A stretch of DNA of 64,000 nucleotides, from NCBI GenBank assembly GCA_903934015.1, contig CAIZMI010000021.1, positions 10,868 through 74,867 of the forward strand. Direction: 5' to 3'. Within the stretch, counting starts at the first letter, position 1. Every line of letters begins with the position of its first letter. The translations under genes and the position numbers were made by a program. Source of the DNA: an uncultured bacterium. GTDB lineage: Bacteria; Patescibacteriota; Andersenbacteria; UBA10190; CAIZMI01. The notes below the pieces were generated by a model. The model was not told the DNA's origin and did no database searches. It saw nothing but the letters and a program-made list of their open reading frames with translations. This document shows, in pieces, positions 25,478-42,230 of the stretch.

Positions 25478-25574
25478 ATGGGAGCATCCTTTATGTACAC
25501 TATTACTTCCGCTTGTAACTACTCACTCCAATGAAAGTTGCTCCATATTTCAATCAAACCTTATTCAAATCACC

Positions 25575-25636: not shown

Positions 25637-25861
25637 TCAAGGACTTAATAATCTATTCAAACTTTCATACTGGTGAGTAGTTACATCCTGCATTACACAT
25701 TATTGACAAAACCTGGAAAAGGGAGTAGCGTTATTCGTTAGTTCACGGGAGTGCAGGGCGTGAGGGAGCCTGATCCTTCACAATTGAATATGGGTTAGTT
25801 TCAAGTGGTAGGCTCGTGCTTACCTCAAATTCAAGAGCCGGAAAACGGCAAGGAGTGAAAG

Positions 25862-26296: not shown

Positions 26297-28123
26297 AGCC
26301 GCATGAGGACTCGATAAACTTCATCGTTCAATAAAATCGAACGGTCAAACAGTCTGATGAGAAATCTTCAAGGCTGTTTTTTTTATGAATAAATAAACAT
26401 ATTTATAATAAAGGTCTATATAAATAGGGAGGTAAGTAAATTAAACTAGTAATTTTACGGAGTATCCTTTCGCAAGATACTCCCTAAAACAATGTACTAA
26501 TACAATTAACCTCGCGTAGGGGCAATTCATGAATTGCCCAAAAATAGCACGCCGAAATTTGTATCGATATGTTAATGAAATAAATTTTGTTTTGATTTGA
26601 TATGGAAAAGAAAATGTGCGTCTGGTAAAAAACAACAAGACAATTTTTAAGGTCCGACCCTTGCAATGGTTGGACCTTAAAGTGTCACAACAGGTCGCCA
26701 AAAAATACGTAATAAAATAGGTTACCAAATAAGTAAACGGTATGAACACTATCGTTGTGCAGACAGAACACAAATAGTGTTCAATAGTTAAATATGAGCA
26801 CAAATTGGCTTCAATAATCACTATATTATGATGAAAATTAATGTGTAAAGTATTACAAAAATATCGAGTAATGAGAGAATGAAATCGTGATTGATTATGT
26901 TAAAAAGTGAGCGAATTGTTTGATCTGCCAGCCCATTGAATATGTAATATATTGCTGTTTAAATTGGTAGAAAATTGACTGAAACAAATGCATGATTTAA
27001 ATGAAAATTCGTGACAATATTGTTATAAGATATGGCAATATATTTATTTAATTTTGTCGCGTAATTAGTATATGAAGTAAATAAAAATATGTTGTATATT
27101 CGTGTGCTGAAAAGTTCATTGTTGTGTCCAGTTTTATTGAAATAAGAAAGCTTAATTGATTCATATATTTATATGATTGACGTTGGGAATATATATCCCT
27201 TGTTGCGTATTTGTTGTACTCATTCTGCTCACGAACAGGTGTAACAATGCGATAAGTGATGATTGTATTCTACGCAATAAATCGTTTATGGATGATGTTG
27301 CTAAGTATAGGTAAGCAGTTCTCCTTCAAGGTGGTGCACGCTTGTACTATCTCCGAGTTGGACGTTACAAAAACACTCTTTACTTACAAGCGGTAATAAT
27401 TATTGGTGGAAAATTAATATTCGTGGCTCGCTACGCGTGAAGTGTTGTGGTTGTTACAGTTTGAGCCATTATTTTCCGGACATATTCTTCCTCTGTGGAA
27501 AAGTAGGGAGGTGAATAGTTAATCATTAATCAAATTGTTATTAGGTAAATTAATTCAATTATTAATTTGCGTGCTTAGGTAAGCCAAATTAGTTATTTTT
27601 TATTGAAGGATTGACGAGACCTCTTTTTTCTGCTATGATAAATGGGTAGTAAGTAGTTTGTTCATTCGAAATTGACTTAAATCCATCGGTCGAAGGTGTT
27701 AATGAATTGGAGTCACCTTTCGACCACTAATCTCCCCCTATTAGTGGTCGTAAGGTGTCTCTGAACAAAGTGATGTGCACGCATCCATCAAAAAAACAAA
27801 AACAAACACCTCAAAAAAAGATTGCACTTTTGATCTTTGGAGGAGATAGGTAGGAAAAAGAGTTTTTGGGAGATTAATCTTTTTCTTCACCGGAAGATCG
27901 GAGTCACCGACTTATTCGTTCGTGCAGGAGAATAAGTGAAATCGCTCTAAGCGTCATGAAGTCATGTCCTCCGGGCACTCGTACACAGAATAATTTCTGT
28001 TTAGGAGCGCTCGGACGATGTGCAGACTCTTAGGGCTTAAAGCCCTAGTAGGCACATATTTATTTATTGGCCGTTATCTAGGGCTTTTCCATATCTATTA
28101 AATTTATCCATCATAAAAATCAA

Positions 28124-28480
28124 ATGACATTACCTAAGGAATTTGTCGCCGGTCAAAAAGAAAAATTGCTAGCCGAAAAAATATTGTTGGAATCGGAACT
28201 TAATAAAATTTCCACCAAAGATAATAATTTGGAAGGGAACTTTGATGCCAACTTTCCGGATTACGGCAGATCGCCGGAAGATAACGCGACTGAGGGTGAA
28301 GAATATTCATCGCGGGTGGGAATTGAGAATTCGCTTGAATTAAAATTGCAAGATGTTAATTTGGCGCTGGACAATATAAAAGAAAATAATTATGGCGTGT
28401 GCAATAAGTGTGGTGCAGAGTTGGAACAAGACAGGCTAGTGGTGATGCCATCGGCGACGCGTTGTGTAACTTGTAAGTAA
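28124..28480 (+). CDS. DksA/TraR-family C4 zinc-finger protein
   Basis: The C-terminal motif YGVCNKCGAELEQDRLVVMPSATRCVTC (CxxC-17-CxxC) follows a coiled-coil N-terminus. Confidence 0.75.
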   Translation: MTLPKEFVAGQKEKLLAEKILLESELNKISTKDNNLEGNFDANFPDYGRSPEDNATEGEEYSSRVGIENSLELKLQDVNLALDNIKENNYGVCNKCGAELEQDRLVVMPSATRCVTCK

Positions 28481-28483: not shown

Positions 28484-28930
28484 TTGGCGATAATTATTTT
28501 GATGTTGGTTAAATCAAAATACTTTGGTTTGGTTTTAGGTGTAGTAGTTTCGGACGTCGTAATAAAGTTTGTCGTCGAAAAATATCTGGCGCGTGAGTTT
28601 GCGTTTGGATTATTTAGAATTGGCAATTATGAAAATCCACAGGGTCTTTTTGGGCTTGTTGGTATTACTGAAATTATTTTAATTAACATACTTGTTTTTG
28701 GAGCGGTTGTTTTTTTAATTTGGAAATCTGAAAATGAGCGGGAACGGATGGCGTTGTTATTTATTATTTCCGGAGGGGCACTGAATTTATTTGAAAGAAT
28801 TGCATTAGGTTTTGTGAAAGATAATTTTGCGATTGGAAATTTGGGATATTTTAATTTCGCGGATGTGGCGATTGGGACGGGGATTGTGATTTTGATTAGA
28901 GAATATATTTATTCAAGTAAGAAAGTTTGA
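28484..28930 (+). CDS. lspA: lipoprotein signal peptidase (signal peptidase II)
   Basis: It has four TM helices and LspA motifs (ISGGALNLFERI..., FVKDNFAIGN..FNFADVAIGTG). Confidence 0.75.
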   Translation: MAIIILMLVKSKYFGLVLGVVVSDVVIKFVVEKYLAREFAFGLFRIGNYENPQGLFGLVGITEIILINILVFGAVVFLIWKSENERERMALLFIISGGALNLFERIALGFVKDNFAIGNLGYFNFADVAIGTGIVILIREYIYSSKKV

Positions 28931-29466
28931 ATAGGTTCTAGTCTTGGATAAGTTTGACCAAGATCGTAACGGATCATACGCAATTAGCTTGGAGCAAATA
29001 GATGATCACAAGAAAAAGTAGACCGTTATACTCGAATCCTTACGTGTTCTTGCGAGCCATTGATCATCCGTGAGGATGAGCAAGGCGTGGCAATCTCAAT
29101 AACAATACGATGAATTTTCTATTTTTTAACGGGAGATTGCTTCAGCACGCGACAAGTCGCGTGTTTCGCAAAGACGACGTTTTAAGATGTTATATTGTTT
29201 TTAAAACAAAACTGTCTCCAGATGATTTGCGTATGATCCTTCGTAACTTGGTTGGCGTGTAGTGTTTCTTATAATGCGGTTTTTAAAAGCGTTGTTATTT
29301 TTAATCAGTGGGGAATTGAGACAACGTAACCATTAAATATCTCCTGAGGGTCGATAATGATTCCGTTAACACGGAGTCGTTTGTTTGTGCAAAGTGCGTT
29401 GTGGTACACTGTATTTAATGTTATGGAAAACTTTTTCCAATAGCGGTTAACAAATAACATCCAAAT

Positions 29467-31542
29467 ATGAACATCAATATTAAAAAGCTGGGATTAACAG
29501 GAAGATTTCTTTCTTGGTTTTTAGCAGTTTCCATTGTTCCGATGGCGATAGTCGGATATTTAAGTTACAGCAGTGCCAAAAATGCCATACAACAGGAAGT
29601 TGTTTCTGGGGCGAGTAGTCTTGCTGAATCATTGGAGCGACATATTGTCACTTATTTTGAGGAGCAGAAAGTTACAATAGAATTGCTTGCAAAGAACAGT
29701 GTCTTTCAACAGCGAGAAGATGTGTCAAGCATACAAAATGTGATTGACGATTATTTAAAAGATTCAAAAAGTATTTATTCTTTGATGATTTTTGATAAAA
29801 ACGGAATTTGTATTGCATCAACTGACCCGACAATGAAGGGGCAAGATAGAGCGTCAGACCCGTATTTTGTTGAGGCAAAAAATAAAACTTACATTAAAGA
29901 CGTTTATAAATCCACAACCACGGGATCGTTTGGTTATACTGTTTCTTCTCCACTCAAGAATGGCGATGGATTCAATGGAGTTATTGTTGCGAGATATAAA
30001 CTAGATAGTCTTAATGAAATGCTTGCAATCGCCAATCAGGGAGAAACAATGAAATCGCACCTTGTTGATTCAGGCGGATTTGTATTTACGGCAACGAGAT
30101 TTGGGGGAGAGAAGGACATTTTGTCTTTGAGAGGTGATTCTGCTTCCGTAAAGAACGCTATGTCTTCAAAAGAGGATCAGCATGGAATAAATGTGGATTA
30201 CCGAGGCAAAGAGGTGCTTGGTTCATTCCAAACAGCTCATTTACAGGAAAAGCTTGAAAAGAAATGGGTTTTAGTAGTAGAAGAAGATACAAAAGAATCC
30301 TATGCGCCTGTTAGTTCGCTTCGAAATAAGGTTCTGGCTATTTCGCTAATAATTATCGCATTAATTTTCGGCTTGGCTTACATCGCCTCTCGTTCGATCG
30401 GTAATTTTGTGCGTAATCCGATCAAGAATGCCGTAAAACAACTGGCACAGGCGGCCGATGTATTGGCTGCTTCTACGCAAATGTCGTCTGCGGCATCTCA
30501 GCAAAATTCTTCCACCGCGCAACAGTTGGCGGCAGGAGCATCGTCCCAATCACATCAATCTGAGGAAATTTCAAAGAATATTGCGGAAATGGCAGCAGCG
30601 AGCAGTCAAATGGCAGCTTCAGCACAAGAAGCGGCCGTCTCTAGCTCAAAGGCGGCGGAAATGGCACAAAAGGCCGGCAGTCTTGGTGCAACATCGCAAA
30701 AAAACCTCAATGATATTAAGTCGATGGTTGGTGAAACTTCGCAAATGGTTAAAAACATTGCCGGCAGTTCGGAACAAATTGGTGATATTGTTGACGCGAT
30801 AACCTCAATTGCCGATCAGACAAACCTCTTGGCGCTAAATGCCGCCATTGAAGCCGCGCGGGCAGGAGAGGCGGGTAGAGGGTTTGCAGTAGTGGCGGAT
30901 GAGGTGCGGAAATTAGCTGAAAGTTCTGCCAAGTCGGCGGAAGAAATTAAAGGGCGCATTAAAAGTGTTTTGGGTCAAGTGGAAGAGACTGTTACGGCTG
31001 TTGAGTCGGGTGCGGAAAATGCCGAATCGAGCGCAAAAGCAATCGGAGATACGCTTGGTACCCTGCAGGAAATTTCCTCCGCTGTTTTGCAGGTTTCCGC
31101 TAAAATTCAAGAATTATCCGCCGGTATTCAACAGCAAACAGCTTCGGTACAGGAATTGGCAAAGACAATGGATTCAATTGCATCGGTAGCAACACAGAAT
31201 GCATCCGGCGCTCAACAACTTTCAGCTTCAACACAACAACAAGCCGCGGCGAATCAGCAAATTGCCGCGTCAACACAGCAGTTAATGGCATTGTCGGAAA
31301 CATTGCAAGATTTGTCCGGTGGCGTGGAAATTATTAAGTCTAGTTTGGGTGGCATATTAAATAGGAAAAACAGGGTTGCAAAGAAAGAAGGAAGGACTTC
31401 ATTAGACGAGCAACATGTTGATAATATCGAGCCGGAGAAAGAACCTTCCATTATTCTTTCAGAACCCACAAAAGTGGTGCCGAAAATAAGGAGAATTACA
31501 AGAAAAAATACAGAAAAAAACGATCAATCTTTTAACGGTTAA
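29467..31542 (+). CDS. methyl-accepting chemotaxis protein (Cache-like periplasmic sensor, two TM helices, MA signalling domain)
   Basis: TM helices at about aa 15-35 and 285-305 flank a periplasmic domain. The conserved MA core is present ([35 protein letters not shown]). Confidence 0.9.
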
Positions 31543-31555
31543 TGTTGATTCCGTT

Positions 31556-32143
31556 ATGGAAAACGAATTACAGAAGGCCGTAGCAAACGTAAAACCTTCA
31601 TCCACTAAAAACAAGAAGGTGGTTGAGGAACGGCATCAGTTGGTTGTTTTTGAGTTGGATAACGAGGAGTATGCGGTACCAATTCAAGATTTGCAAGAAA
31701 TTATCAAAATTCCCGTAATCACGCCAATTCCAAGCGCGCCGGATTTCATCAGCGGTATTTTTAATCTTCGAGGGAGGATCGTTGTTGCCATAAATTTGGA
31801 GAAGCATTTTAACTTAGTGCGTGAAAAAAAGACGCCTTGTAATCACATTATTGTGTCGGAAATTAACGCCAATATTTTTGGTGTAATTGTTGATAATGTG
31901 GTGGAAGTCATTCAAGTTCCTGTTTCTCAAATCAAACCGACGCCATCATTAGTTTCAGCAAAAATAAAAGCTGATTACCTAAGTGGTGTTGTGGTAATAG
32001 GCGGGGAAGCAGAAGAGGGTCAGGAAACTGGTGAAAGCAAAGAGAAGAGTCGCTTAATTATCTTGATGGATCTACCAAAACTGCTTCAGGAGAAAGAACT
32101 TTTAGATATTGGCGCGCAAGTGGCAGACACAGCTAATCATTAA
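31556..32143 (+). CDS. cheW: chemotaxis coupling protein CheW
   Basis: A CheW-like domain is present (EEYAVPIQDLQEIIKIP..ITPIP.AP.FI.GI.NLRGRIV). Confidence 0.8.
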   Translation: MENELQKAVANVKPSSTKNKKVVEERHQLVVFELDNEEYAVPIQDLQEIIKIPVITPIPSAPDFISGIFNLRGRIVVAINLEKHFNLVREKKTPCNHIIVSEINANIFGVIVDNVVEVIQVPVSQIKPTPSLVSAKIKADYLSGVVVIGGEAEEGQETGESKEKSRLIILMDLPKLLQEKELLDIGAQVADTANH

Positions 32144-32152
32144 GAATATTTT

Positions 32153-32740
32153 ATGCAATTTAGTAAAGAAAATTTGGAGATTGCGGCGATTAAGGGGTCG
32201 AGAAACGTTGCGGAAGCGTTTTCTAAGCTTGCGAAAACTTCGATTAAAGTAGAAACGTCTAAGGTGGAAACAGTGTCTTTTGACGTGGCAATTTCTCGTA
32301 TCAAGCCACCAGGCGATCACGCGGTGGTGGTTCATTCGAACGTCCTATTTGGGGCAAAAGGGGCTGCGATATTGATGTTATCCAGAGAAGATTCATTGGT
32401 TTTAGTTGATTTATTGCATAATCAAGAGATTGGCACCACGGGCATCCTAAAAGATCTTGATCGTTCCGCTTTGAAGGAAACATTAAATATCCTTTCCAAC
32501 TCTTTCGTTACTGCACTCTCGGATGTCACGAATGTGGAGTTGGGGCTGGGTGTCCCGGGGATGATTACTGCCGGTCGATTAGAGGAAATAATTGGCGCAA
32601 TGCGTACCGGAAACAAGGTAAAAAATGACGATAACGAGTCGCTAATTTTCGAAACTAGTTTTTCCGCATTTAAGCAAAAAATCGACGCTAGTTTGTATCT
32701 TCTTTTTAGCGAAGGAATTGTTGATTACATTAAGGAATAA
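32153..32740 (+). CDS. CheC/CheX-family chemotaxis phosphatase, paralog 1
   Basis: It carries duplicated CheC-type motifs (E..NI.....A..ALS; LKETLNILSNSFVTALS). Confidence 0.65.
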   Translation: MQFSKENLEIAAIKGSRNVAEAFSKLAKTSIKVETSKVETVSFDVAISRIKPPGDHAVVVHSNVLFGAKGAAILMLSREDSLVLVDLLHNQEIGTTGILKDLDRSALKETLNILSNSFVTALSDVTNVELGLGVPGMITAGRLEEIIGAMRTGNKVKNDDNESLIFETSFSAFKQKIDASLYLLFSEGIVDYIKE

Positions 32741-32745
32741 AAGAT

Positions 32746-33339
32746 ATGGAACTGTCTAAAGACATTTTGAGTAGGGCCACCACTGAAGGATCAAAAAAAG
32801 TGGCAGAAGCGATGACGATTTTAACTTCTACTTCAGTGGAAGTGGAAGTATCGCGCGTTGAAAGTATGCCTTTCAATGATGCTCTAAATCGTATGTCTAC
32901 CAGCGGTGATTATGGTGTAGTAGTTTTTTCTAATATCGACACCAAAAATGTCATTTCGGGAGTTTCTTTGCTCACAATAGCGCGACCCGATGCGTTAATG
33001 TTGGTGGATATTTTAAATAAGCAAGAAGACGGAACGACCAGGATTCTTAAAGAAATTGATCGTTCTGCGATTAAAGAAATGCTAAATATTCTCTCTAATT
33101 CATACGCTAACGCAATCGCGGAAGCGTCGGAAATTGAATTAAAAATTGATATTCCATCGATGATTACCGTAACGCGATTACAAGGCATTATTTCGCAGGC
33201 GTTTCGGTTTAATGCCGGGCAAATGGAAGGATTATCAATAATTTTTGAAACAACCCTGACGATTGCAAATAAAAAAATTAGAGTTGGTTTGTTTCTCATT
33301 TTTAATGAAAACTTTGCCAAATTGTGTTGCTCAATTTAA
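32746..33339 (+). CDS. CheC/CheX-family chemotaxis phosphatase, paralog 2
   Basis: Same architecture as the upstream paralog (IKEMLNILSNSYANAIAEAS). Confidence 0.65.
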   Translation: MELSKDILSRATTEGSKKVAEAMTILTSTSVEVEVSRVESMPFNDALNRMSTSGDYGVVVFSNIDTKNVISGVSLLTIARPDALMLVDILNKQEDGTTRILKEIDRSAIKEMLNILSNSYANAIAEASEIELKIDIPSMITVTRLQGIISQAFRFNAGQMEGLSIIFETTLTIANKKIRVGLFLIFNENFAKLCCSI

Positions 33340-33348
33340 TTTTTAATT

Positions 33349-33714
33349 TTGATTAATGATATGGAAAAAAGTTCAAAAGTATTACTAGCGGACGATTCTG
33401 CCTTTATGCGCAAGGTGTTGAAAGACATCCTTGAGGGGATAGGGTTCACCAATTTTATCGAGGCGGAAAACGGCGTCGAAGCAATTGAAAAATTTAACGC
33501 TGAAAAGCCATCCTTAGTTATGTTGGATATTATTATGCCCGTTAAAAACGGCATTGATGTTCTAAAGGAGATTGGGAAAAAGGCGCAAATAATTGTTGTG
33601 TCGGCAGTGGGGCAGGATGGGATGATCGAAGAAGCAAAGACCTTGGGAGCGGTAGATTATATCATCAAACCTTTTGACAGGGCCCAGGTTGAAGAAAAAA
33701 TTGCCGCTCTTTAG
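33349..33714 (+). CDS. cheY: chemotaxis response regulator CheY (single REC domain)
   Basis: The LLADDS...VMLDIIMP...VVSA...KPF receiver motifs place the phospho-acceptor Asp in the expected position. Confidence 0.8.
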   Translation: MINDMEKSSKVLLADDSAFMRKVLKDILEGIGFTNFIEAENGVEAIEKFNAEKPSLVMLDIIMPVKNGIDVLKEIGKKAQIIVVSAVGQDGMIEEAKTLGAVDYIIKPFDRAQVEEKIAAL

Positions 33715-33740
33715 TTGGATTTAATAATAAAGATTATCAA

Positions 33741-34742
33741 ATGCGCGAGAATTCTAAAATTCTAATCATCGATGACGATAAATTCTTTTTGGAATTTTAC
33801 CGTGCAGAGTTTGCTCAATTAAATTTGACTACGGATTTCGCCAAGGATGGCGAGGATGGATTACAAAAAATACTTGAACTTCAGCCAGACGTTGTTTTGC
33901 TTGACCTAATGTTGCCGAAAAAAGATGGTTTTGCGGTTTTGCGTGAAATGCGCGCCAACGATCAAACAAAAAAAATTCCTGTTGTTGTAGTAACCTCATT
34001 AAATGCACCCTTAGCGCTGAAACAACTTGAGGGGCTTGAAGTGCAAAAAATATTCAACAAATTATTCAGTTTACCGAAAGAAGTGGTGGAATATGTTTGT
34101 GAGTTACTTGATAGAGAAAATGGTCGTGTTGCGGAAACCGGAAAATCGGTCGAGAAAAAAGGGTCTTATTTGTCTAAAGCGACTCTGGAGCAAATTTTTA
34201 AAGGTAGTCTGACAGAGATTGAGCTGGCCTTCGAAAGAATATTCTCTCAAAAAGCACAAATTGAAGACTATAATATGGCATTAATTCCACCAAGCGAATT
34301 CAAAAAAAACATTATTGATTTAACCCGCCAGCCAGGAGCAGTTTTTCTGTTTGCACCGATTAAGGCGGTTGTGGCGGGGGCGGCACTGATGGCAATGCGT
34401 CGCAGTGATGTGCTGACAATGATTAAATTGATTCAAGAAAGCGCCTTGGGGAAGAATCTTGAGTTGAACACGGACGATAGGGTGGTAGAAGAATTTTTCA
34501 ATATGATTATTAATTCCTTTCTTACAAAACTTTCAAGTTCTATGACCGGCCCCGTTCTCCTGCAGACGCCAGTTTTTGTGAACGAGAAAGAAGTTGTTGA
34601 TGAATTGGCTAAAATAGATGCTTTCGACTTGAAGGATTCTTCGGTGATGTTTATTGAAGAATCATATTCCTTCAAAGATCTCGATTTAGATATTGCCATA
34701 TACATTACGTTTGGCAGTGAATTATTTACAAAACTACGATGA
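33741..34742 (+). CDS. response regulator with an N-terminal REC domain and a C-terminal CheX/CheC-like domain of about 200 aa
   Basis: REC motifs are ILIIDDD...VLLDLMLP...VVVTS. The C-terminal region (FAPIKAVVAGAALMAMRR...FFNMIINSFLTKLSS) resembles CheX-type phosphatases. Confidence 0.55.
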   Translation: MRENSKILIIDDDKFFLEFYRAEFAQLNLTTDFAKDGEDGLQKILELQPDVVLLDLMLPKKDGFAVLREMRANDQTKKIPVVVVTSLNAPLALKQLEGLEVQKIFNKLFSLPKEVVEYVCELLDRENGRVAETGKSVEKKGSYLSKATLEQIFKGSLTEIELAFERIFSQKAQIEDYNMALIPPSEFKKNIIDLTRQPGAVFLFAPIKAVVAGAALMAMRRSDVLTMIKLIQESALGKNLELNTDDRVVEEFFNMIINSFLTKLSSSMTGPVLLQTPVFVNEKEVVDELAKIDAFDLKDSSVMFIEESYSFKDLDLDIAIYITFGSELFTKLR

Positions 34743-35110
34743 ACAAAGATATTTCAATTTTAGTAGTTGACGATTCAGCTTTCATGCGACAATACATTAT
34801 TGGGTTTTTGCATGAATTGGGTTATGAAAAAATCAGTGAGGCTGGTAATGGTCCTGCCGCATTGAATGCAGTAAACGAGAGTATGCCGGATGTTGTTTTG
34901 TTGGACATGATTATGCCAATAATGGATGGTATGGAGGCTTTGGAGAAACTCGTAGAATTAAACGCGCGCGTAATTGTTGTTACCGCGATGGGTCAACGTA
35001 TTACGATCGTGAAAGCCATTGAAAAAGGTGCGCGTGGTTATTTTGTAAAACCATTTTTCACGGCACATGAGTTGGGACGTAAAATTGAAGAGGTAATAAA
35101 CGAGGATTAA
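34739..35110 (+). CDS. CheY-like response regulator (single REC domain)
   Basis: REC motifs are ILVVDDSAFMR...VLLDMIMP...VVTAMGQ...KPF. Confidence 0.8.
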   Translation: MNKDISILVVDDSAFMRQYIIGFLHELGYEKISEAGNGPAALNAVNESMPDVVLLDMIMPIMDGMEALEKLVELNARVIVVTAMGQRITIVKAIEKGARGYFVKPFFTAHELGRKIEEVINED

Positions 35111-35113
35111 AAG

Positions 35114-36181
35114 ATGGTAAAAACGCAGTCCACGATAAGAATAGTCATCGCTGACGATTCGTTTTTTATGCGTCGTTTGCTGACAGAGATAATTAAAAAT
35201 TATCGTGACCTGGAGATTGTCGGTGAAGCGCGAGATGGACAGCAAGCGTTGGAATTAGCCAATAAATTGAAGCCGGACGTAATTACGATGGATTACAATA
35301 TGCCGGTTTTGAATGGCGCAGAAGCAACAAAGAAGATTATGCGAGTGATGGAAAACCCGCCGGCGATAATCATGCTCTCCGCGCATACACGTGAAGGCGC
35401 AGCCGAAACATTTCGGTGTTTACGGGCAGGCGCACTTGAATACATTACCAAACCATCAGGCGAGTTATCGCTTGATATCAACATAATTGAGGATGAAATA
35501 ATTGAAAAAATTCGTACTGCTTCTCAGTCGCGAGTAAAAAAATACGAAGAAATAAAACAGCGGGAAAAAAGAGGAGTTGTGACAGCGAAGAAGCTGACTA
35601 AGGTGGTAGTAATTGGCGCTTCAACCGGTGGGCCGCCTTTAGTGGAAAATCTCGTGAGCGAAATGCCCGCAAATTTAAACGTGGCCGTTGTTATTATTCA
35701 GCATATGCCGAAGTTTTTTACAGAAATATTTGCGGAAAGACTGAATGATATTTCTGTCTTGCCAGTAAAAGAAGTGGTTAATGGAGATGTCCTTGAGGCG
35801 GGGAAAATGTATCTTTCGCCGGGGGGAAATGTGCTGAAATTTACCAGACTGGAAACCGGTGTGCGCAAAGGCGAAGTAATAATGGAACTACTTACTGAGA
35901 AGGTCCATTCTAAGCTCAGCACAATCGATGGCGCCATGGCTTCGCTGGCGACGGTATTCAAGAAAAATATTATTGCAGTGCTTTTGACCGGTATGGGTGA
36001 GGATGGCTTGGTTGGGGTGAAAGAAGTTAAGCAAGCCGGGGGTTATGTGATTGCGCAAGATCCAAACACTGCGGCGGTGCGTTCAATGCCGGAAGCGGTA
36101 ATTCAGGCGCAACTGGTAGATGCTGTTTTGTCACCGGAGAAAATAATCGATAAAATAATTGAACAATGTCAATCGATCTAA
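35114..36181 (+). CDS. cheB: protein-glutamate methylesterase CheB (REC plus methylesterase)
   Basis: An N-terminal REC domain is followed by a CheB methylesterase domain (VVIGASTGGPPLVENL...VIIQHMP...GMGEDG). Confidence 0.85.
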   Translation: MVKTQSTIRIVIADDSFFMRRLLTEIIKNYRDLEIVGEARDGQQALELANKLKPDVITMDYNMPVLNGAEATKKIMRVMENPPAIIMLSAHTREGAAETFRCLRAGALEYITKPSGELSLDINIIEDEIIEKIRTASQSRVKKYEEIKQREKRGVVTAKKLTKVVVIGASTGGPPLVENLVSEMPANLNVAVVIIQHMPKFFTEIFAERLNDISVLPVKEVVNGDVLEAGKMYLSPGGNVLKFTRLETGVRKGEVIMELLTEKVHSKLSTIDGAMASLATVFKKNIIAVLLTGMGEDGLVGVKEVKQAGGYVIAQDPNTAAVRSMPEAVIQAQLVDAVLSPEKIIDKIIEQCQSI

Positions 36182-37848
36182 ATAAGTTTAAAAACATATT
36201 TCTGGAAGAGGCGGAAGAGCATATCCAAAAGTTGAATGATAATTTGTTGTTGTTGGAAAAAAACCCGGACGAACCAAAAATTTTTGACGAATTAATGCGT
36301 TCAGCGCATACAATCAAGGGCTCATCGGCAACGATGCAATTTCAGCAGGTGGCCTTTTTGACGCACGTAATGGAAGATATTTTTGACTATGCACGCAATG
36401 GTCAACTGGCGATAACTAAAAAGATTATTGGATTACTTTTTGAGGCTTTGGATGGTCTTCAGAATGCTATGAGTGAAATCGGTAAAAACAAGGAGGAGCC
36501 GAACCTTTCGGTGCTTTCCGCTAAGTTAAAAAAAGTAACCGGTGTGGCAACTGAAGGAATAGGAAGGTCACTTCGGACAGTTGATGGAAAACCAGTCGTG
36601 CAAGAGAAAGAAAAGAATAAAAATGAAAACGGCGCGCCCGTTTTGTTGTCCGGTATTGAACATGCGGTAGAAAAACTCTCACACATCAAAGTACCGGTTG
36701 AAAGAATGGACGCCCTGATGGATCTCATGGAAGAGTTGTTGATTGATAAAATGCGCTTATTGCAGATTGAAAAGGGAAATAAAAAAACCGACGAAGTGGT
36801 GGAACACATTAGTCGCTTGATTTCCGATTTGCAATTCCAGGTGATGCAGGTGCGCTTGGTGCCGGTAGAGCAAGTTTTTGCGCGTTTTCCACGGATGGTT
36901 CGCGACCTTAGTGTTGCGCAGGGGAAAAAAGTGGATTTTGAGATAGTTGGCGGTGAACTGGAATTAGACCGCACAATCGTTGATAAGCTGAGTGAACCGA
37001 TATTGCATATGTTACGTAACGCCATTGATCATGGGATTGAAAAAGATGGTTATGTGAAACTTTCGGCGGCGCGTGAAAAAGAATTTGTCTTGCTGTCTGT
37101 TGAAAATGGCGGAATTGATATTGATTGGAAGAAGTTGGTTACAGTAAGCGCAAAGAAGGGAATTGTTTCCGACGAGAAAGCCGGCGAATATCTTACCGAA
37201 TTGAGCGCGGATGAAAGCAGAACCCCCAGAGCAGAGATTGTTGATCTGTTATTTGGAGGAGTTTCTACGAATGATGCAGTGACAGAAACATCCGGTCGAG
37301 GTGTGGGAATGAGTATTGTTAGAAAATTTGCTGAGGCCGTAAACGGCGCTGTACAAGTGGAGTCGCCATTGGCTGGAGGGAAAGGTGCAAAAATTACGTT
37401 AGAGCTACCGCCCACGTTGGCAATTATTAATGCACTCCTGGTAGAAATTAATCATGAAACGATGGCTATTCCTTTTTCGAGTGTTGATCGTGCGGTTGCG
37501 ATTCAAGAACAAAACATAAAATTGATGGGTGACAGAGAAGTTGCGGTGGAAAGTGATGCGGATTTACCGCTCGTTCGTTTTCGCAAACTAGAAGGAACAA
37601 ATAATTTGGTGAGCAAGGAAGTGAAAAAGAAACAAGAAACTGTTGTAATTGTTAAAAGGGGTAAAGATCGTGCGGGGATAGTAGTAGACAAGATTGTTGG
37701 TGGCTACGAAATAATTGTGAAGCCGATGGCGCCGGTTTTACGTCATTTAAATGGCTTTAGTGGCTCTACGATTTTGGGAGACGGCCGGACAATCTTAATT
37801 ATTGATGTGCTGACAATGTTGAAAAGCACGCGCATTCTTCAGAATTAA
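36166..37848 (+). CDS. cheA: chemotaxis histidine kinase CheA
   Basis: It contains an HPt domain (SAHTIKGSSATMQF), an HATPase_c domain (GRGVGMSIV) and a C-terminal CheW-like domain. Confidence 0.9.
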   Translation: MSIDLNKFKNIFLEEAEEHIQKLNDNLLLLEKNPDEPKIFDELMRSAHTIKGSSATMQFQQVAFLTHVMEDIFDYARNGQLAITKKIIGLLFEALDGLQNAMSEIGKNKEEPNLSVLSAKLKKVTGVATEGIGRSLRTVDGKPVVQEKEKNKNENGAPVLLSGIEHAVEKLSHIKVPVERMDALMDLMEELLIDKMRLLQIEKGNKKTDEVVEHISRLISDLQFQVMQVRLVPVEQVFARFPRMVRDLSVAQGKKVDFEIVGGELELDRTIVDKLSEPILHMLRNAIDHGIEKDGYVKLSAAREKEFVLLSVENGGIDIDWKKLVTVSAKKGIVSDEKAGEYLTELSADESRTPRAEIVDLLFGGVSTNDAVTETSGRGVGMSIVRKFAEAVNGAVQVESPLAGGKGAKITLELPPTLAIINALLVEINHETMAIPFSSVDRAVAIQEQNIKLMGDREVAVESDADLPLVRFRKLEGTNNLVSKEVKKKQETVVIVKRGKDRAGIVVDKIVGGYEIIVKPMAPVLRHLNGFSGSTILGDGRTILIIDVLTMLKSTRILQN

Positions 37849-37857
37849 CTATCTTTT

Positions 37858-38460
37858 ATGTTTACAGAATTTGAGCAAGATGAGTTGAGAGAAATTGTAA
37901 ATATCGGTTCCGGTAACGCGAGCACGGCATTAGCAAAAATGCTAAAACAAAAAATCCATGCGTCCGTGCCGTTGATTTTGTTTGACGAGGTGCAGAATAT
38001 TTTACCAAAACTCGGGTTGGCCGATAGTCGTGTGACCGTTGTTTTAGTGCGTGTCGATGGCGAGATTCCCGGAGTCTTCTTTATTGCGTTGCCATTAGAA
38101 AACGGATTGGAGTTGGCATCCATGCTGACGGGCGAAGAAAAATCAGGGACTCTCTTGAATGAATTTGGCAGCTCCGCACTTAAAGAAGTGGGGAACATTC
38201 TCTCCGGGGCGTCACTTACGGCACTTTCAAAGTTTTTAGGTTTGGATTTTGTGCAGTCTGTTCCGGAAATTACATCTGATATGCTGGGGGCAATTTTGGA
38301 GTCGATTTTAGTCGAGACGGGTGAAGCGTATGAAAAAATTCTTTTGATTAGCACGAACCTGGATTTTGCTACCGATTGTCACGCGCGATTGTTCTTCGTT
38401 TTCAATCCGGATGCAACAAATGGAATATTGTCGGCTGTTCAGCGGAAATTAGAAAAATAA
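37858..38460 (+). CDS. cheC: chemotaxis phosphatase CheC
   Basis: The classic CheC motifs ELREIVNIGSGNASTALAKML and ALKEVGNILSGASLTALSKFLG are present. Confidence 0.8.
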   Translation: MFTEFEQDELREIVNIGSGNASTALAKMLKQKIHASVPLILFDEVQNILPKLGLADSRVTVVLVRVDGEIPGVFFIALPLENGLELASMLTGEEKSGTLLNEFGSSALKEVGNILSGASLTALSKFLGLDFVQSVPEITSDMLGAILESILVETGEAYEKILLISTNLDFATDCHARLFFVFNPDATNGILSAVQRKLEK

Positions 38461-38462
38461 TT

Positions 38463-38930
38463 ATGCATGAGGATGTAAAATACATTGGCACTGGCGAGGT
38501 GGCGGTTTCAAGTACCGGCATCATCAAAACTTCCGGTATCGGATCCTGTATTGTCGTGACGCTTTACGATGGTGAGAAAAAAATTGGCGGGATGGTGCAT
38601 GCGATGCTACCGGCGAGAAAAGAGAATGGAACGGAGTATCTTTTATCTCCAAAATATACCGATGAAGCAATTGAAATTTTAATTGATGAAATTGAACAAC
38701 AAGGTGGTAGCAGAGAAAGGTTAAAAGCAAAGTTGATTGGCGGTGCAAAAATGTTTCGGTTGTTGAGTGGCGATAACTTTGGAATTGGTTTTAAGAATAT
38801 TGAATCAGCCAGGGAAAATCTTGGGGCTATCGGGATCTTGATTGAGAGTGAAGATGTTGGTGGCACTATTGGGCGCAGTGCGGAATTAAATCTGGAGAAT
38901 GGTTTGGTTTTAGTCAGTTCGATGATGTAG
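38463..38930 (+). CDS. cheD: chemoreceptor glutamine deamidase CheD
   Basis: The CheD motif GIGSCIVVTLYD...GMVHAMLP is present. The start was moved to the ATG at 38463, directly after the CheC stop; the ORF-track start at 38376 overlaps cheC. Confidence 0.8.
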   Translation: MHEDVKYIGTGEVAVSSTGIIKTSGIGSCIVVTLYDGEKKIGGMVHAMLPARKENGTEYLLSPKYTDEAIEILIDEIEQQGGSRERLKAKLIGGAKMFRLLSGDNFGIGFKNIESARENLGAIGILIESEDVGGTIGRSAELNLENGLVLVSSMM

Positions 38931-38959
38931 GGGCGTTACTTGATGATTATTAAACTTTC

Positions 38960-40471
38960 ATGTCCGCAATAGTTAGATCAGTTACACTTACCGGTTTAGA
39001 TGTTCATCCAGTTGATGTGGAAGTGGAGGTTTTGCCTGGGCTTCCGTCGGTAACAATCGTTGGTTTGCCGGATACTGCCGTAAAAGAGGCGAAGGAAAGG
39101 ATTGTCGCGGCGCTGGCAAATTCTGGTTTCGAACCACCCAGGCACCGAACGATTGTAAATTTAATGCCCGCCCACATTCGTAAGGTGGGACCACAGTTTG
39201 ATTTGCCGATTGCGTTGGCATTTTTGATGGCAACAGGACAATTGACTGCGCGGGTGGAACATTTTGTGTTTGTGGGCTCTTTGGGCTTAGATGGAAAATT
39301 GCAACCGATTTTGGGGACGGTGGCAATGGGAGACTATGTGAAAAATTTTGGTAAAGATATTCTGTTTGTTCCGAAAGAAAATGGTCGGGAAGCGGTTTTG
39401 GCCGGTGGTGAAGTAATTGCCGTGGAAAGTTTGCGGGCGATTGTGGAGCACTTAGAAAATCGATCACCGCTGGCACCGATAGTGAAAGATGAAGAAGAAG
39501 AAACCGTTGAATATTACATCGGGACAAATTTTAGGGAGATTGCCGGACAAGAGCATGCCAAACGGGCATTGGAAGTGGCAGCGGCGGGTGGTCATAACGT
39601 GCTTTTGCATGGTCCACCAGGATCGGGAAAGACTTTATTGGCACGCGCTTTTGCGGGCATTCTGCCACGACTAAGTAAGTCAGAAGCTTTTGAGGTTACA
39701 AAAATATACAGCATTAAAGGATTACTGTCGGCACAGGATGCTTTAATCAGCACGCGTCCTTTTCGTTCGCCACATCATTCCACGTCTGCTGTCGCTTTGA
39801 TTGGTGGCGGAAGTAATCCGCAACCGGGAGAGGTAACGCTGGCACATCGTGGGGTGTTGTTTTTGGACGAATTTGCGGAATTTCCGCGCACTGTGCTGGA
39901 TCATATGCGTGAACCGTTAGAAGAAGGTTTTGTGACCGTTAGTAGAGCGGCGGGCAGTCAAAGTTTCCCGGCAAGGTTTTCACTAGTCGCAGCAATGAAT
40001 CCTTGTCCGTGTGGTTACTACGGTGATTCCAATCGCACCTGTTCTTGTGGGGCGGGGGAAGTGGCAAAATATCAACGACGTGTTTCAGGGCCACTTTTGG
40101 ATCGTATTGATTTACATGTGCATGTGCCGGCCGTAAAAGCCGATATTGTTTTGGATCATTTTGAAGCGGAGCCGTCTGAAAAAATTCGGGAACGGATTGA
40201 GAAAGCTAGGACAAAACAACGACAGCGTTTTTCGGCAGAAAAAGCGAACGCGGAAATGAGCGGGGAACAGATTCGAAAATATTGTGAGTTGTCACCGGAA
40301 AGTCGAAACCTGTTAGCACGGGCCGCCGAAAGTTTACGTTTGAGTACTAGGGCAGTGCATCGAACAATCAAGGTTGCTCGTACGATCGCCGATTTGGCAA
40401 ATGAAGCGGATATATCATCAGCGCATCTGGCAGAAGCTTTACAGTATCGGACGCCGTTGGGAGAGAACTAA
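38960..40471 (+). CDS. comM: YifB/ComM-family Mg-chelatase-like AAA+ ATPase
   Basis: It has an N-terminal Lon-protease-like domain, Walker A GPPGSGKT and a ChlI-type AAA core. Confidence 0.85.
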   Translation: MSAIVRSVTLTGLDVHPVDVEVEVLPGLPSVTIVGLPDTAVKEAKERIVAALANSGFEPPRHRTIVNLMPAHIRKVGPQFDLPIALAFLMATGQLTARVEHFVFVGSLGLDGKLQPILGTVAMGDYVKNFGKDILFVPKENGREAVLAGGEVIAVESLRAIVEHLENRSPLAPIVKDEEEETVEYYIGTNFREIAGQEHAKRALEVAAAGGHNVLLHGPPGSGKTLLARAFAGILPRLSKSEAFEVTKIYSIKGLLSAQDALISTRPFRSPHHSTSAVALIGGGSNPQPGEVTLAHRGVLFLDEFAEFPRTVLDHMREPLEEGFVTVSRAAGSQSFPARFSLVAAMNPCPCGYYGDSNRTCSCGAGEVAKYQRRVSGPLLDRIDLHVHVPAVKADIVLDHFEAEPSEKIRERIEKARTKQRQRFSAEKANAEMSGEQIRKYCELSPESRNLLARAAESLRLSTRAVHRTIKVARTIADLANEADISSAHLAEALQYRTPLGEN

Positions 40472-41547
40472 ATTTTCAATGATCAATTTCCAATTTTGCA
40501 ATTAATTATCAATTTTTAATTTTCAAAACAGCTTCTTCTGAAAATTGAGGCTTGAACATTATTTGAAAATTGATAATTAGAAATTGAAAATTAGAAAGTG
40601 CTGGGGTTATAGTAAATCAAAACAATAAAATATGGCTAATAAAAGCTAAGAATTAGCAGTATTCATACTATACTATTGACAATTTCGTTTTTTTAGAGTA
40701 TACTTCAGAGTTATTTAATCGAAGGAATTAGGTGATTGAACCGCCCCTTTGACAATTGAATAATGAAGGTAGGATGCTAAAAAGATTTTTTGGCACTCCG
40801 CCCATGGCGGCACAGTCGGTTATCCGGTTGGTCGCCAGAGGCGGGGGGATAAAAAGGATTGCTGAGCATTGTCTGTCTGTAAGGATGGGCAAGGCGAAGC
40901 AATTTTCCCAAGTCCGATAGGAAGCGGGCAATAGGGGCGTGGTTTTAACTCAATCCACGATAAAAAATGGGCGTGGGGATTCATACTCTGGATCCCCACC
41001 ATACTTGAGTTTCTCACTTGTCCCAAAAGACTTGTCGGAAATTCAAGATTTGGTTAAAATCGTGGAAATACCCGGATCTGCCTCGGGTGTACATTCTTTT
41101 TTCAGACCGTATTTCGCCTGGTTAGGTGAAAGGCAGAACGGTCAGCAACGCCAGAGGGAAAGGACCTACCAAATGGCGCGTGGCAATATTTCTGAAATGC
41201 CCCCTGTCGAGCCGGGGCGACAAGTTTCAGCTCGAGTGTTTTGTATCGGGGGTTGCGTCAGGCGTGTCGGGAATAAGGAAGCCGAAAAGCCCGCCGTTGC
41301 TGATGACGCCGGAGGCGACGACACCACCTTCACCACGGACGGCCAGGTCGACGCGACCATTAACGCGTCGTCCGCCCAGTCGACCTCGGTCGACGAAGAG
41401 TCGAAAGGGTGGGTCTGGAAACCCACTCGGACGGCGGCCATGGAGCACGCCGAACGACACACCAAACCGCGTCGGTGGGTGCGCGTCGGCTCCGGCGCGT
41501 CGACTGGTGCCATCGGCACCGGATGTCGTCGCTAGCCGACCGTCGCT

Positions 41548-41620
41548 GTCATTCCTGGCCATGACCAGGAATCAGCGACGACCGCGATGACTGGCTCCTG
41601 CTCGTGGGCAGGAGCGACAA
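41548..41620 (+). repeat. repeat family B two-hairpin element
   Basis: gtcattcctggccatgaccaggaatcagcgacg...ggctcctgctcgtgggcaggagcgaca. A direct repeat of the same element lies at 43094..43200. Confidence 0.7.
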
Positions 41621-42230
41621 TAAAAAAACCGAAGCGATCGAGTCAATGGACTCTTTCGCTTCGGGATTCACAAATGGTAACGAGAGGAATATTATTTCGT
41701 TATCGGTTGTGTGTTTTTTTCAAAGTTCGCTGTTTCGAAATGGCCACGAAAAGGACGCGTTTCGTGGTTCAAGACAGGGTGCGTCAGGGAGGGGATGGCT
41801 ATGTGTTGGATGGATCAGGTTCAGGAGGCGGTGGTACTGGAGACGGAAGAAATCCATCGGTGTCCTGGTCGAAGGGTGGGCTGGAAGCCTCATCCGGTTC
41901 GTGATGTTCTCGGACATCCGGTTAATCGCAGGGTTCTTCGTGCGGTTGAACGCCAGGTTGAAAAGGAATTCGGCCTGCCTTGTTCGTCGCAAAAAGTGCG
42001 ACCACGGTAGTGTTCCGATGGTCGAGGAATTTTTTCACCCCACACACAGTTTTACTGGATCGTGTGGGGTACATCTCTCGGTTTGGCAAGAAGTACTTAC
42101 TGGCTCGAGAAGATGTGCAAAATAAAATACAAAGGAATAAGATAAAGCGTATGGGGGAGTAGTTCTTTTAGAACTGAACCCTTTTCAAGTTTCGTAACTG
42201 GTGCAAAACTCCAAAGAAAGGAGGCTTGTC

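Follow-up and report, generated by a model that had tools for sequence, protein, structure and literature searches.

The 64-kb stretch of DNA analysed here, referred to as the window, carries a cluster of chemotaxis (che) genes at positions 29467–38930. The cluster is composed of eleven open reading frames (ORFs), which are all located on the plus strand and are nearly contiguous, with gaps of −16 to +26 nt between neighbouring genes. This agrees with an earlier annotation of the same DNA (the original prediction), which described eleven co-directional, tightly spaced che genes. The genes and the matches that identify their products are as follows:

29467–31542, plus strand, MCP chemoreceptor, 691 residues (Pfam MCPsignal, E-value 3.9e-44; dCache_1, 1.3e-21)
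31556–32143, plus strand, coupling protein CheW, 195 residues (Pfam CheW, 5.6e-32; NCBIfam CheW, 2.3e-19)
32153–32740, plus strand, C'1 (ORF3), single-site CheC-like protein, 195 residues (motif; profile match to the PDB; NCBIfam CheC_Thtogales, 6e-13)
32746–33339, plus strand, C'2 (ORF4), single-site CheC-like protein, 197 residues (motif; NCBIfam CheC_Thtogales, 2.3e-13)
33361–33714, plus strand, CheY1, single-domain response regulator, 117 residues (Pfam Response_reg, 6.5e-24)
33741–34742, plus strand, hybrid of a receiver (REC) and a CheC-like domain, 333 residues (Pfam REC, 1.2e-16; profile–profile comparison; Foldseek)
34739–35110, plus strand, CheY2, single-domain response regulator, 123 residues (Pfam REC, 8.7e-25)
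35114–36181, plus strand, CheB methylesterase/deamidase with an N-terminal REC, 355 residues (Pfam CheB_methylest, 7.5e-55, and REC)
36166–37848, plus strand, CheA histidine kinase, 560 residues (Pfam Hpt, H-kinase_dim, HATPase_c and CheW)
37858–38460, plus strand, two-site CheC, 200 residues (Pfam CheC, 9e-20, and CheX, 3.3e-12; NCBIfam CheC_Thtogales, 1.3e-32)
38463–38930, plus strand, CheD receptor glutamine deamidase, 155 residues (Pfam CheD, 7.8e-26; NCBIfam CheD_Thtga, 1e-35)

The chemoreceptor, CheW, the three receivers of CheY1, CheY2 and the hybrid, both the receiver and the methylesterase domain of CheB, the domains of CheA, CheC, and CheD score above the curated Pfam cut-offs. ORF3, ORF4 and the C-terminal part of the hybrid lie below them, with sub-threshold matches to CheC, CheX or FliM. 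The ORF of CheY1 opens at the TTG codon 33349, and the ATG at 33361 is the start used in public gene calls of identical contigs; similarly, a longer TTG ORF of CheD opens at 38376, inside cheC, and the public gene calls use the ATG at 38463. The starts at 33361 and 38463 are the more likely ones, because both are ATG codons, remove an implausible overlap, and match the public gene calls. The stop codon of the hybrid and the start of CheY2 overlap by 4 nt, and cheD begins 3 nt past the stop of cheC. A scan for promoters and terminators gave counts equal to the shuffled expectation, and the assignment of the genes to one operon is therefore based on their spacing. The operon encodes four REC domains, one more than the three receiver proteins counted in the original prediction, and four CheC-family domains, in line with its "three or four" CheC/CheX proteins, with five predicted active sites. 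Judging from alignments, the catalytic and phospho-acceptor residues of these parts are intact. Identical proteins are encoded on 11–16 public contigs from several metagenome samples, the longest of which is 103.8 kb, and the GC content of the cluster is typical of the window.

According to hydropathy and Pfam, the chemoreceptor has one transmembrane helix around residues 14–33, a periplasmic dCache_1 domain at residues 39–271, and a second transmembrane helix around residues 285–312. It has neither a HAMP domain nor a C-terminal pentapeptide of the NWETF type. The signalling hairpin is long, and its tip motif, EAARAGE, starts at residue 462. The positions of the second transmembrane helix and of the hairpin tip, rather than heptad-class hidden Markov models (HMMs), were used to estimate that the hairpin has about 22 heptads per arm and is thus close to class 44H. 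Heptad-spaced Gln-Gln and Gln-Glu pairs fit the consensus [ASTG]xx[EQ][EQ]xx[ASTG] and are kept in six receptors from bacteria of the candidate phyla radiation (CPR). Relative to four other CPR orthologues, the window receptor and that of the related locus L005 share matching insertions of 28 residues, or four heptads, in both arms. The insertions are located at residues ~400–428 of the descending arm and ~517–544 of the ascending arm, which corresponds to nucleotides ~30660–31100. They appear to represent a symmetric change of heptad class, which we estimate as roughly from 36H to 44H.

The domains of CheA are one Hpt, the dimerisation domain, HATPase_c, and a CheW-like P5; a C-terminal REC is absent. 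CheB and CheD are present, as had been predicted. CheB exceeds the cut-off of the NCBIfam model NF001965 (333.8 versus 293 bits), and its alignment to solved CheB structures shows that the motifs GASTGGP, IQHMP, and GMGEDG, which provide the Ser, His, and Asp, are kept. CheD matches the CheD of Thermotoga maritima (PDB: 2f9z_C) with an E-value of 8e-28, and the GxGSC...H motif with the catalytic Cys and His is conserved. Except for CheB, all proteins of the operon score below the NCBIfam equivalog cut-offs and are thus divergent. The best-scoring NCBIfam models are those of Thermotogales for CheC, CheD, and the C' proteins, and that of haloarchaeal CheY for both CheY1 and CheY2.

CheC, which has 70.8 bits against a Pfam cut-off of 22 bits and contains two CheC stretches, retains both sites in a motif scan, D8xxxE12xxN15...P38 and S106xxxE110xxN113...P136. 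Two active sites and a gene adjoining cheD characterise CheC proteins of the CheD-partner type, and a pairing of the two proteins is predicted from these features. In C'1 the first active site is lost, and the second one, S105-ALK-E109-TL-N112...P135, is intact; C'2 has likewise kept the second site alone (S107-AIK-E111-ML-N114...P137). For profile–profile comparison we prepared three alignments: A3, of eight C' proteins from CPR clusters; A4, of seven CPR CheC proteins; and A2, of the C-terminal domain of the hybrid with 13 homologues. The C' and CPR CheC profiles match each other in hhalign (99.4%, E-value 1.9e-21), and the C' profile matches T. maritima CheC (PDB: 2f9z, 1xkr) over the full length of 181 residues with an E-value of 6e-16. 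The E-x2-N-x22-P site is invariant in both the C' and the hybrid families. The weak Pfam matches of C'2 to FliM and CheX reflect the shared CheC fold. Motifs, profile–profile comparison, the profile match to the PDB, and the modelled structure described below together establish that ORF3, ORF4 and the C-terminus of the hybrid belong to the CheC family, so that the window carries three subfamilies of one superfamily: CheC, C', and the hybrid domain. C'1 is 56% identical to its orthologue L005_a, and C'2 is 51% identical to L005_b, whereas C'1 and C'2 are 42% identical to each other. C'2 is an old tandem paralogue of C'1, and the pairing of each copy with its own L005 counterpart indicates that the duplication predates the split of the window and L005 lineages.

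The N-terminal receiver of the hybrid has the residues D11–D13, D55, T85, and K107. A linker of ~20 residues connects it to a C-terminal domain of ~190 residues with a full CheC fold and a single active site, E251-FF-N254-x22-P277. The residues D55, K107, E250/E251, and N254 are invariant in 13 hybrid homologues, which indicates that both halves of the protein are under selection. The C-terminal domain scores 18 bits against the 27-bit cut-off of Pfam CheX and has no match in NCBIfam; its homology is therefore established by profile–profile and structure comparison. It matches the C' family over 183 columns (hhalign: 98.7%, E-value 1.9e-16), whereas the match to the CheC of the window is weak (E-value 0.008). 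It aligns end to end with proteins of CheC length, over 184 columns with ORF3 and 198 columns with 1xkr. The domain thus descends from the C' branch and is paralogous to ORF3 and ORF4. The AlphaFold2 model of residues 140–333 has a mean predicted local distance difference test (pLDDT) score of 79.7 and a predicted template modelling score (pTM) of 0.77, and the AlphaFold2 models overall have pLDDT scores of 78–80. All 37 Foldseek matches of the model in the PDB at E-values up to 1e-3 are CheC, FliY, CheX or FliM. The top matches are the CheC-like protein 3qta and CheC 1xkr and 2f9z, with E-values from 1e-9 to 7e-8 and TMq of 0.61–0.67, followed by FliY, then CheX (E-value 5e-7, TMq 0.47–0.55), and then FliM middle domains. 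The original prediction described the protein as a fusion of REC and CheX. A receiver that could be phosphorylated and a domain of the CheC superfamily with an intact motif are indeed present, and the relationship to that superfamily, on which the description depended, is borne out by the profile and fold comparisons. The assignment to CheX was rejected: at ~190 residues the domain is not the compact unit of ~150 residues, and CheC outranks CheX in Foldseek, in agreement with a full CheC-like fold.

All four receivers, those of the hybrid, CheY1, CheY2, and CheB, have the acidic pocket, the phospho-acceptor Asp, the Thr/Ser, and the Lys in the alignment. The hybrid receiver is only 25–26% identical to either CheY1 or CheY2, which are 39% identical to each other, and it was therefore dismissed as a recent duplicate of one of them. 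CheY1, for which an archaeal CheY is the best NCBIfam model, belongs to an orthogroup that includes the sole CheY of basal CPR clusters, with identities of 46–68%. CheY2 forms a separate orthogroup, with 47–60% identity within the group and ~40% to CheY1.

The hybrid family is tiny and very rare, and is invisible to current domain libraries. A word-indexed search of 5.8 billion proteins yielded 13 full-length homologues. Among 185,579 species-representative genomes the domain was found in a single metagenome-assembled genome (MAG) of Uhrbacteria, and a metagenome scan returned four loci. An exhaustive HMM search of 1.84 billion representative proteins gave 75 matches at E-values up to 1e-3. 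About 14 clusters (at 50% identity) among them have the length of the fusion, 320–430 residues, with the match in the C-terminal half; in every cluster checked, a REC occupies the N-terminus and Pfam recognises no domain at the C-terminus. The other matches are standalone C' proteins of ~190 residues.

The CPR-like context noted in the original prediction is supported by the other genes of the window, which has no rRNA genes in its 64 kb. The presence of a T4SS_pilin array and the relatives of GyrA and CheA point to a CPR (Patescibacteria) host from the Parcubacteria group. GyrA is 62–68% identical to named relatives from the Parcubacteria group, Moranbacteria, Buchananbacteria, Komeilibacteria, Doudnabacteria, and the "Patescibacteria group". 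All named proteins among the best 120 homologues of CheA (41–80% identity) are from Patescibacteria, which indicates that CheA belongs to a CPR-wide clade. T4SS_pilin arrays are a hallmark of CPR genomes, and the seven tandem paralogues found here are a large number. These T4SS_pilin/TrbC-like genes (PF18895) lie within positions 6301–10400, where a DUF559 endonuclease-like gene at 9518–9892 interrupts the array:

6301–7185, plus strand, T4SS_pilin
7361–7780, plus strand, T4SS_pilin
7777–8163, plus strand, T4SS_pilin
8160–8495, plus strand, T4SS_pilin
8555–8905, plus strand, T4SS_pilin
8886–9302, plus strand, T4SS_pilin
10038–10400, plus strand, T4SS_pilin

Eleven related loci were recovered, in which the order of the cluster genes is conserved; orthologues with identities of 40–80% hold the same positions. 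A chemosensory system of this kind is thus real and conserved in CPR bacteria, and comparison of the loci indicates a CPR-wide core cluster of MCP-CheW-C'-CheY-CheB-CheA-CheC-CheD:

L015, closed 1.14-Mb contig OZ246404.1 (GCA_965230955.1): MCP-CheW-C'-CheY-CheB-CheA-CheC-CheD; no pilus genes within 10 kb
L016, Magasanikbacteria-type locus: core cluster as in L015; no pilus genes within 10 kb
L017: variant without MCP, CheW, and C'; no pilus genes within 10 kb
L020 (GCA_964533715.1): core and a second CheY; embedded between PilB-PilC and PilM-pilins, all on one strand
L006: hybrid added between the two CheYs; cluster followed immediately by PilB-PilM-PilC in the same orientation
L009: hybrid added; downstream, in the same orientation, PilB-PilC and three pilins
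L018 and L019: hybrid added (E-value 5.8e-35 against A2); PilB-PilC-pilin...PilM downstream on the same strand
L005/L008, MAG GCA_043805995.1 of Candidatus Uhrbacteria: hybrid and two C' genes; upstream neighbours pilins and PilM, downstream neighbours PilC and PilB/T (opposite strand)
10.8-kb JGI contig: hybrid added; the contig ends just past CheD

In six of the related loci, the che cluster abuts or sits inside type IV pilus genes (PilB, PilC, PilM, and pilins), in five different arrangements. All pilus-linked clusters contain a member of the CheY2 orthogroup, which the three basal clusters without such linkage (L015, L016, and L017) lack. The hybrid is present in most members of the pilus-linked subclade, two C' copies occur only in the window and L005, and C' is found in every CPR cluster that carries MCP and CheW. 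The original prediction called the redundancy of phosphatases and receivers unusual. The redundancy is real, but it corresponds to a stepwise, lineage-specific elaboration of the CPR core by CheY2, the hybrid, and the C' duplication. Several relatives contain sensory parts that the window lacks, so the inputs of the system vary between lineages. They comprise PAS proteins encoded between CheY2 and CheB, soluble histidine kinases whose genes lie within the cluster, and a zinc-binding CZB domain on the receptor or encoded as a separate gene:

L005, 11412–12518: extra sensory part
L006, 8031–8813 and 12807–13730: extra sensory parts
L009, 7958–8929: extra sensory part
L018, C-terminus of the MCP: extra sensory part

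To look for cheR, flagellar, and pilus genes, every sizeable gene of the window (about 60 ORFs) was scanned, together with the precomputed Pfam annotation of 10 kb to its left and 3.4 kb to its right. In agreement with the original prediction, the 64-kb window contains neither CheR (PF01739/PF03705) nor flagellar families, and the same is true of the ~13 kb beyond it. Flagellar families are also missing from the 10 kb on either side of the related clusters, so that no flagellar genes were found in any of the 12 neighbourhoods formed by the window and the related loci, and cheR was found in none of the 11 related CPR clusters.

On these grounds we favour, with a probability of about 0.6, the reading that the locus is a functional CPR chemosensory operon of the CheC/CheD/CheB type ("F1-like"), the likeliest output of which is a type IV pilus machine rather than a flagellum. 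The pathway would probably control the extension and retraction of the pilus and, hence, twitching, approach to a host, or attachment. In CPR bacteria, type IV pili serve both motility and the establishment of an infection of the host (PMC11665869), and in archaea an adaptor links a Che pathway of the same design to a motor that resembles a type IV pilus (PMC7289035).

The window system is close to those of Bacillus subtilis and T. maritima (class F1 of Wuichet and Zhulin). It shares with them a single-Hpt CheA, CheW, free CheY, CheB, and a two-site CheC encoded directly upstream of CheD, as well as a long receptor (~44 heptads) that has Gln-encoded sites but lacks a pentapeptide at its C-terminus. 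The best curated models for its CheC and CheD are those of Thermotogales, and the order cheB-cheA-...-cheC-cheD resembles that of the B. subtilis fla/che operon. The window thus has the CheA, CheW, CheY, CheB, CheC, and CheD content of class F1, including a CheA with one Hpt and no REC, whereas the association with flagellar or archaellar genes that is part of the class definition was seen in no context examined, pilus genes being the neighbours instead. In further contrast to B. subtilis and T. maritima, the CPR clusters lack flagellar genes and cheR and, in relatives, have pilus genes as neighbours. CheV and FliY are absent here, and C' proteins, the hybrid, and a second CheY are added.

The archaeal systems with CheF and an archaellum are similar in that a CheC/CheD/CheB-type pathway is re-used for a machine related to type IV pili and in that several CheC paralogues occur per operon. 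In addition, the haloarchaeal CheY model is the best-scoring one for both CheY1 and CheY2, and the best structural and sequence match of the hybrid domain is the haloarchaeal CheC-like protein 3qta. However, no CheF homologue was recognised in the CPR system, the target would be an extending and retracting bacterial pilus rather than a rotary archaellum, and archaeal operons normally include cheR (PMC7289035). The Pil-Chp system of Pseudomonas, Tax1/PixGH of Synechocystis, and others of the "Tfp" class resemble the CPR loci in the linkage of a chemosensory cluster to type IV pilus genes and in the presence of two single-domain CheY-like regulators that are possibly antagonistic (PMC11181946, PMC12129077). 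The linkage to pilus genes typical of this class is found in six related loci and is missing from the window and L015–L017. Furthermore, ChpA, the CheA of this class, has many Hpt domains and a REC, unlike the CPR CheA with its one Hpt and no C-terminal REC; Tfp systems do not include CheC, CheD, or C'; and a PilK-type CheR is absent here. The CPR system may therefore work like the Tfp systems without being a member of their class.

In the proposed mechanism, an extracellular ligand would bind the dCache_1 domain of the receptor, which would control CheA via CheW. Phosphorylated CheA (CheA~P) would pass the phosphate to CheY1, CheY2, the receiver of the hybrid, and CheB. CheY1~P, CheY2~P, or both might act on the pilus motor (PilB/PilM/PilC), as suggested by synteny and by analogy with PilG/PilH and PixG/PixH, and the two CheYs may be antagonistic, like the proteins of those pairs. 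The single-site C' proteins would set the signal decay by hydrolysing CheY~P. The two-site CheC and CheD would form a pair as in B. subtilis and T. maritima, with a CheY~P-dependent sequestration of CheD, and CheD together with CheB would deamidate the many Gln-Gln sites of the receptor. The B. subtilis and T. maritima steps on which this scheme is modelled are summarised in PMC7289035.

For the hybrid, we tentatively prefer, at slightly less than even odds, that phosphorylation of the receiver switches on or positions the CheC-like phosphatase, which would provide kinase-dependent feedback termination of CheY~P; this role is favoured because it follows the usual logic of response regulators. 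It is possible, though less probable, that the hybrid acts as a self-dephosphorylating phosphate sink, and a function as a FliM-like or CheF-like adaptor is slightly less probable again. The "self-contained signal-terminating module" of the original prediction is consistent with the combination of a REC and a phosphatase-type domain, but it is one of at least two plausible roles. Fusions of a CheC-superfamily domain to a two-component domain have precedents in Psyr_0886 of Pseudomonas syringae, annotated as "REC + CheC domain" (PMC5654926), and in the CheA-CheC/CheX fusions of Leptospira (PMC10542144). We found no demonstrated mechanism in the literature for either type. The domain of the CPR hybrid differs from both in that it originates from the CPR-specific C' branch; the REC plus CheC/CheX architecture is thus already known, and the CPR hybrid lineage is new.

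Several points weigh against the proposed pilus-directed pathway. The window itself contains no pilus gene in its 64 kb or in the extra 13 kb, so its output is deduced from the relatives; what had been a general idea about pilus-bearing bacteria in the original prediction is now directly backed by six related loci, but not by the window. The basal clusters L015, L016, and L017 are also not linked to pilus genes within 10 kb. The linkage is correlative and partly inherited, so that the six loci which show it cannot be counted as independent events. No adaptor or interaction connecting CheY to the pilus was identified. The label "F1-like" is derived from gene content and best-matching models and not from formal class HMMs. 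The phosphatase activities of C' and the hybrid are predicted from motifs, and in the hybrid the usual D/S at position −4 from the Glu is displaced by one position, D246 being at −5 from E251. Finally, because no cheR turned up in any of the regions scanned, the adaptation branch of the scheme could be incomplete or could operate in another way.

A serious but less likely alternative is that the pathway controls pilus-dependent or other cellular functions that do not amount to directed movement, such as DNA uptake and competence, host adhesion, or a switch between swarmer and attached cells, in the sense of the "alternative cellular function" class. ComM is a transformation-associated helicase, and a ComM-like gene lies 29 nt after cheD in the window, but this adjacency is not kept in the relatives, where the linked genes are those of the pilus motor and platform themselves (PilB, PilC, and PilM). 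The additional PAS proteins and histidine kinases that are encoded within some of the related clusters would fit such functions, as would the implication of CPR pili in adhesion and DNA uptake besides motility (PMC9938205; PMC11665869), whereas the many predicted CheY~P phosphatases and the two free CheYs suggest fast temporal signalling as in taxis. CheC and CheD also occur in the Dif system of Myxococcus xanthus and the Dif-like system of Geobacter, the output of which is matrix and not motor reversal (PMC2577667). Dif has no CheB, its receptor is almost devoid of a periplasmic domain, and it contains neither C' nor a hybrid, whereas the CPR cluster has CheB and a receptor with a dCache_1 sensor.

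It is less probable still that the hybrid and the C' proteins are CheY~P-binding adaptors without phosphatase activity, homologous to FliM middle domains, which dock the signal on the pilus in a CheF-like role. The CheC fold is common to the switch proteins FliM and FliY, archaeal CheC2 binds the CheF adaptor (PMC7289035), and C' is the only part outside the Escherichia coli set that is present in every CPR cluster with MCP and CheW. The first active site is lost in both the C' and the hybrid families, but the invariance of the remaining E-x2-N-x22-P site in both argues for retained catalysis. FliM is not known to carry this motif.

CheR is described as a core enzyme in all three functional families of chemosensory pathways (PMC3447774). 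A S-adenosylmethionine (SAM)-dependent methyltransferase gene directly upstream of the chemoreceptor in two related loci was considered as a CheR substitute and rejected, as its PDB relatives are enzymes of the UbiE/ToxA type, which act on small molecules, and include no CheR:

L018, 2487–3266: UbiE/ToxA-like SAM-methyltransferase directly upstream of the chemoreceptor
L019, 2512–3285: UbiE/ToxA-like SAM-methyltransferase directly upstream of the chemoreceptor

Genes for a PorA-like protein and a periplasmic binding protein precede these methyltransferases, which have only the SAM-binding motif in common with a methyltransferase of the window (4220–4906). In B. subtilis, cheR is located outside the che operon, and its absence from the window cluster alone would thus be weak evidence. 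What stands out is that none of the 11 related CPR clusters has it, while cheB and cheD are kept; a gene that an operon lacks may still be encoded elsewhere in the genome. We consider it an improbable extension that the CPR pathway works without any methyltransferase, so that irreversible deamidation by CheD and CheB of receptor sites that are nearly all encoded as Gln-Gln would serve as a one-way "ageing" or timer adaptation of a short-lived, non-growing swarmer in search of a host, and that C' and the REC-C' hybrid couple CheY~P to the pilus motor. If true, Che signalling would have been connected to a motility machine in a third independent way, the other two being through FliM in bacteria and through CheF in archaea.

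It is very unlikely that the cluster is a standard flagellar F1 chemotaxis operon with cheR and flagellar genes elsewhere in the genome. Its CheA, CheW, CheY, CheB, CheC, and CheD and its ~44-heptad receptor do match the flagellar systems of Bacillus and Thermotoga, the location of B. subtilis cheR gives a precedent, and the observed absences apply to the window and ~13 kb beyond it rather than to the whole genome. However, the host is a CPR bacterium, a group described as lacking flagellar motility and chemotaxis machinery (PMC11974145), flagellar Pfam families are missing from all of the regions scanned, and the neighbouring positions are taken by pilus genes. We give hardly any credence to a recently transferred or decaying island without current function: contigs from independent assemblies end at 28685/~28692 and 40577, bracketing the cluster and comM, and the cluster interrupts the dksA-lspA-comM arrangement of L016, but all 11 ORFs are intact with conserved catalytic residues, identical proteins recur in several samples, orthologues at 40–80% identity keep the gene order, the GC content is that of the window, and no flanking repeats were found.

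Patescibacteria represent a large share of bacterial diversity. To our knowledge, all cultivated members of the CPR live as epibionts of other microbes, and type IV pili are their means of reaching new hosts. The literature that we covered, which is incomplete, yielded no paper on a CPR Che pathway, its linkage to pili, the C' family, or the hybrid. A review of Patescibacteria makes no mention of chemosensing (PMC11665869), nor does a study of Saccharibacteria pili, and CPR bacteria have been stated to lack motility and chemotaxis machinery (PMC11974145). Nevertheless, public annotation already names such genes, for example "chemotaxis protein CheA [Candidatus Uhrbacteria]", and a global phylogeny of chemoreceptors counts Patescibacteria among the receptor-bearing phyla (bioRxiv 10.1101/2025.06.24.661292). 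Conserved and intact in many lineages of the CPR and repeatedly associated with pilus operons, the pathway can be tested as a candidate means by which ultra-small bacteria find hosts or nutrients. It would be the second case, after archaea, of a CheC/CheD-type pathway re-targeted to a machine of the type IV pilus family. It offers three experimental handles: the two CheY orthogroups, the CPR-specific single-site CheC paralogues, and the very rare receiver–CheC fusion that domain libraries miss. The consistent absence of cheR beside cheB and cheD raises the question of adaptation without methylation.

The distribution of parts suggests a history in which the core cluster gained CheY2 and the pilus linkage, and then the hybrid was inserted. 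Later, C' would have been duplicated and the receptor lengthened by four heptads per arm, before the cluster was relocated between lspA and comM in the window lineage. In L016, dksA-lspA-comM are contiguous (L016 19023–21442), whereas in the window the 9.5-kb che cluster separates lspA from comM and was thus apparently inserted there or moved away from the pilus genes. The flanking genes, of which the two upstream ones are not part of the system, are:

28124–28480, plus strand, DksA/TraR zinc-finger protein (Pfam)
28484–28930, plus strand, signal peptidase II, LspA (Pfam)
38960–40471, plus strand, ComM/YifB-like ATPase of the Mg-chelatase family (Pfam Mg_chelatase, 1.1e-91; ChlI; Mg_chelatase_C)

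The comM-like gene may be co-transcribed with the cluster. Contig L002 starts at 28685, contig L003 spans from ~28692 to 40577, and by coordinate arithmetic the sister contig k141_586188 should end at ~28710. The segment with the che cluster and comM may be strain-variable. The signature of a mobile island was sought and dismissed, since no long or convincing direct repeats flank positions 28.7 and 40.6 kb and the GC content is not anomalous. AT-rich inverted repeats are located at 40471–40600. A histidine kinase/response regulator pair at 43245–44506 was rejected as a conserved accessory of the system, as its identity to a kinase in the L009 cluster is 26%, which is generic.

Two gene-poor regions border these flanks. 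Positions 25138–28123, a stretch of ~3 kb upstream of dksA with a GC content of 0.355, contain almost no credible ORFs apart from one of 144 residues, membrane-like in character, at 25862–26296. Positions 40500–43200, with a GC content of ~0.49, hold overlapping low-complexity ORFs in several frames without Pfam matches, and the gene calls there vary by strain (198 residues in L001 and 176 residues in L002). Rfam at a permissive threshold gave only chance-level matches in 25.1–29.5 and 40.4–43.3 kb. Farther upstream, positions 10600–14000 have a GC content of ~0.51, compared to 0.42–0.45 around them, and carry minus-strand genes; this segment may be foreign DNA. Downstream, two specificity genes flank hsdM in a type I restriction-modification locus at 44573–52768, in which a Bro-N domain gene is inserted before hsdR and a YgjP-like metallopeptidase gene follows. 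The features of these segments are:

10632–11522, minus strand, 296-residue protein without an assigned family
11543–12526, minus strand, SPFH/Band_7 protein
44573–45151, half-size hsdS
46764–47963, full-size hsdS
47960–48796, Bro-N domain gene
48793–52068, hsdR

Rfam places a fourth tRNA (44.8 bits) on the plus strand at 53292–53362, between two tRNA-Arg genes, where ARAGORN reports none. A CarS-like gene of the CDP-archaeol synthase family (PF01864) is present in this bacterial genome at 60058–60606 on the plus strand.

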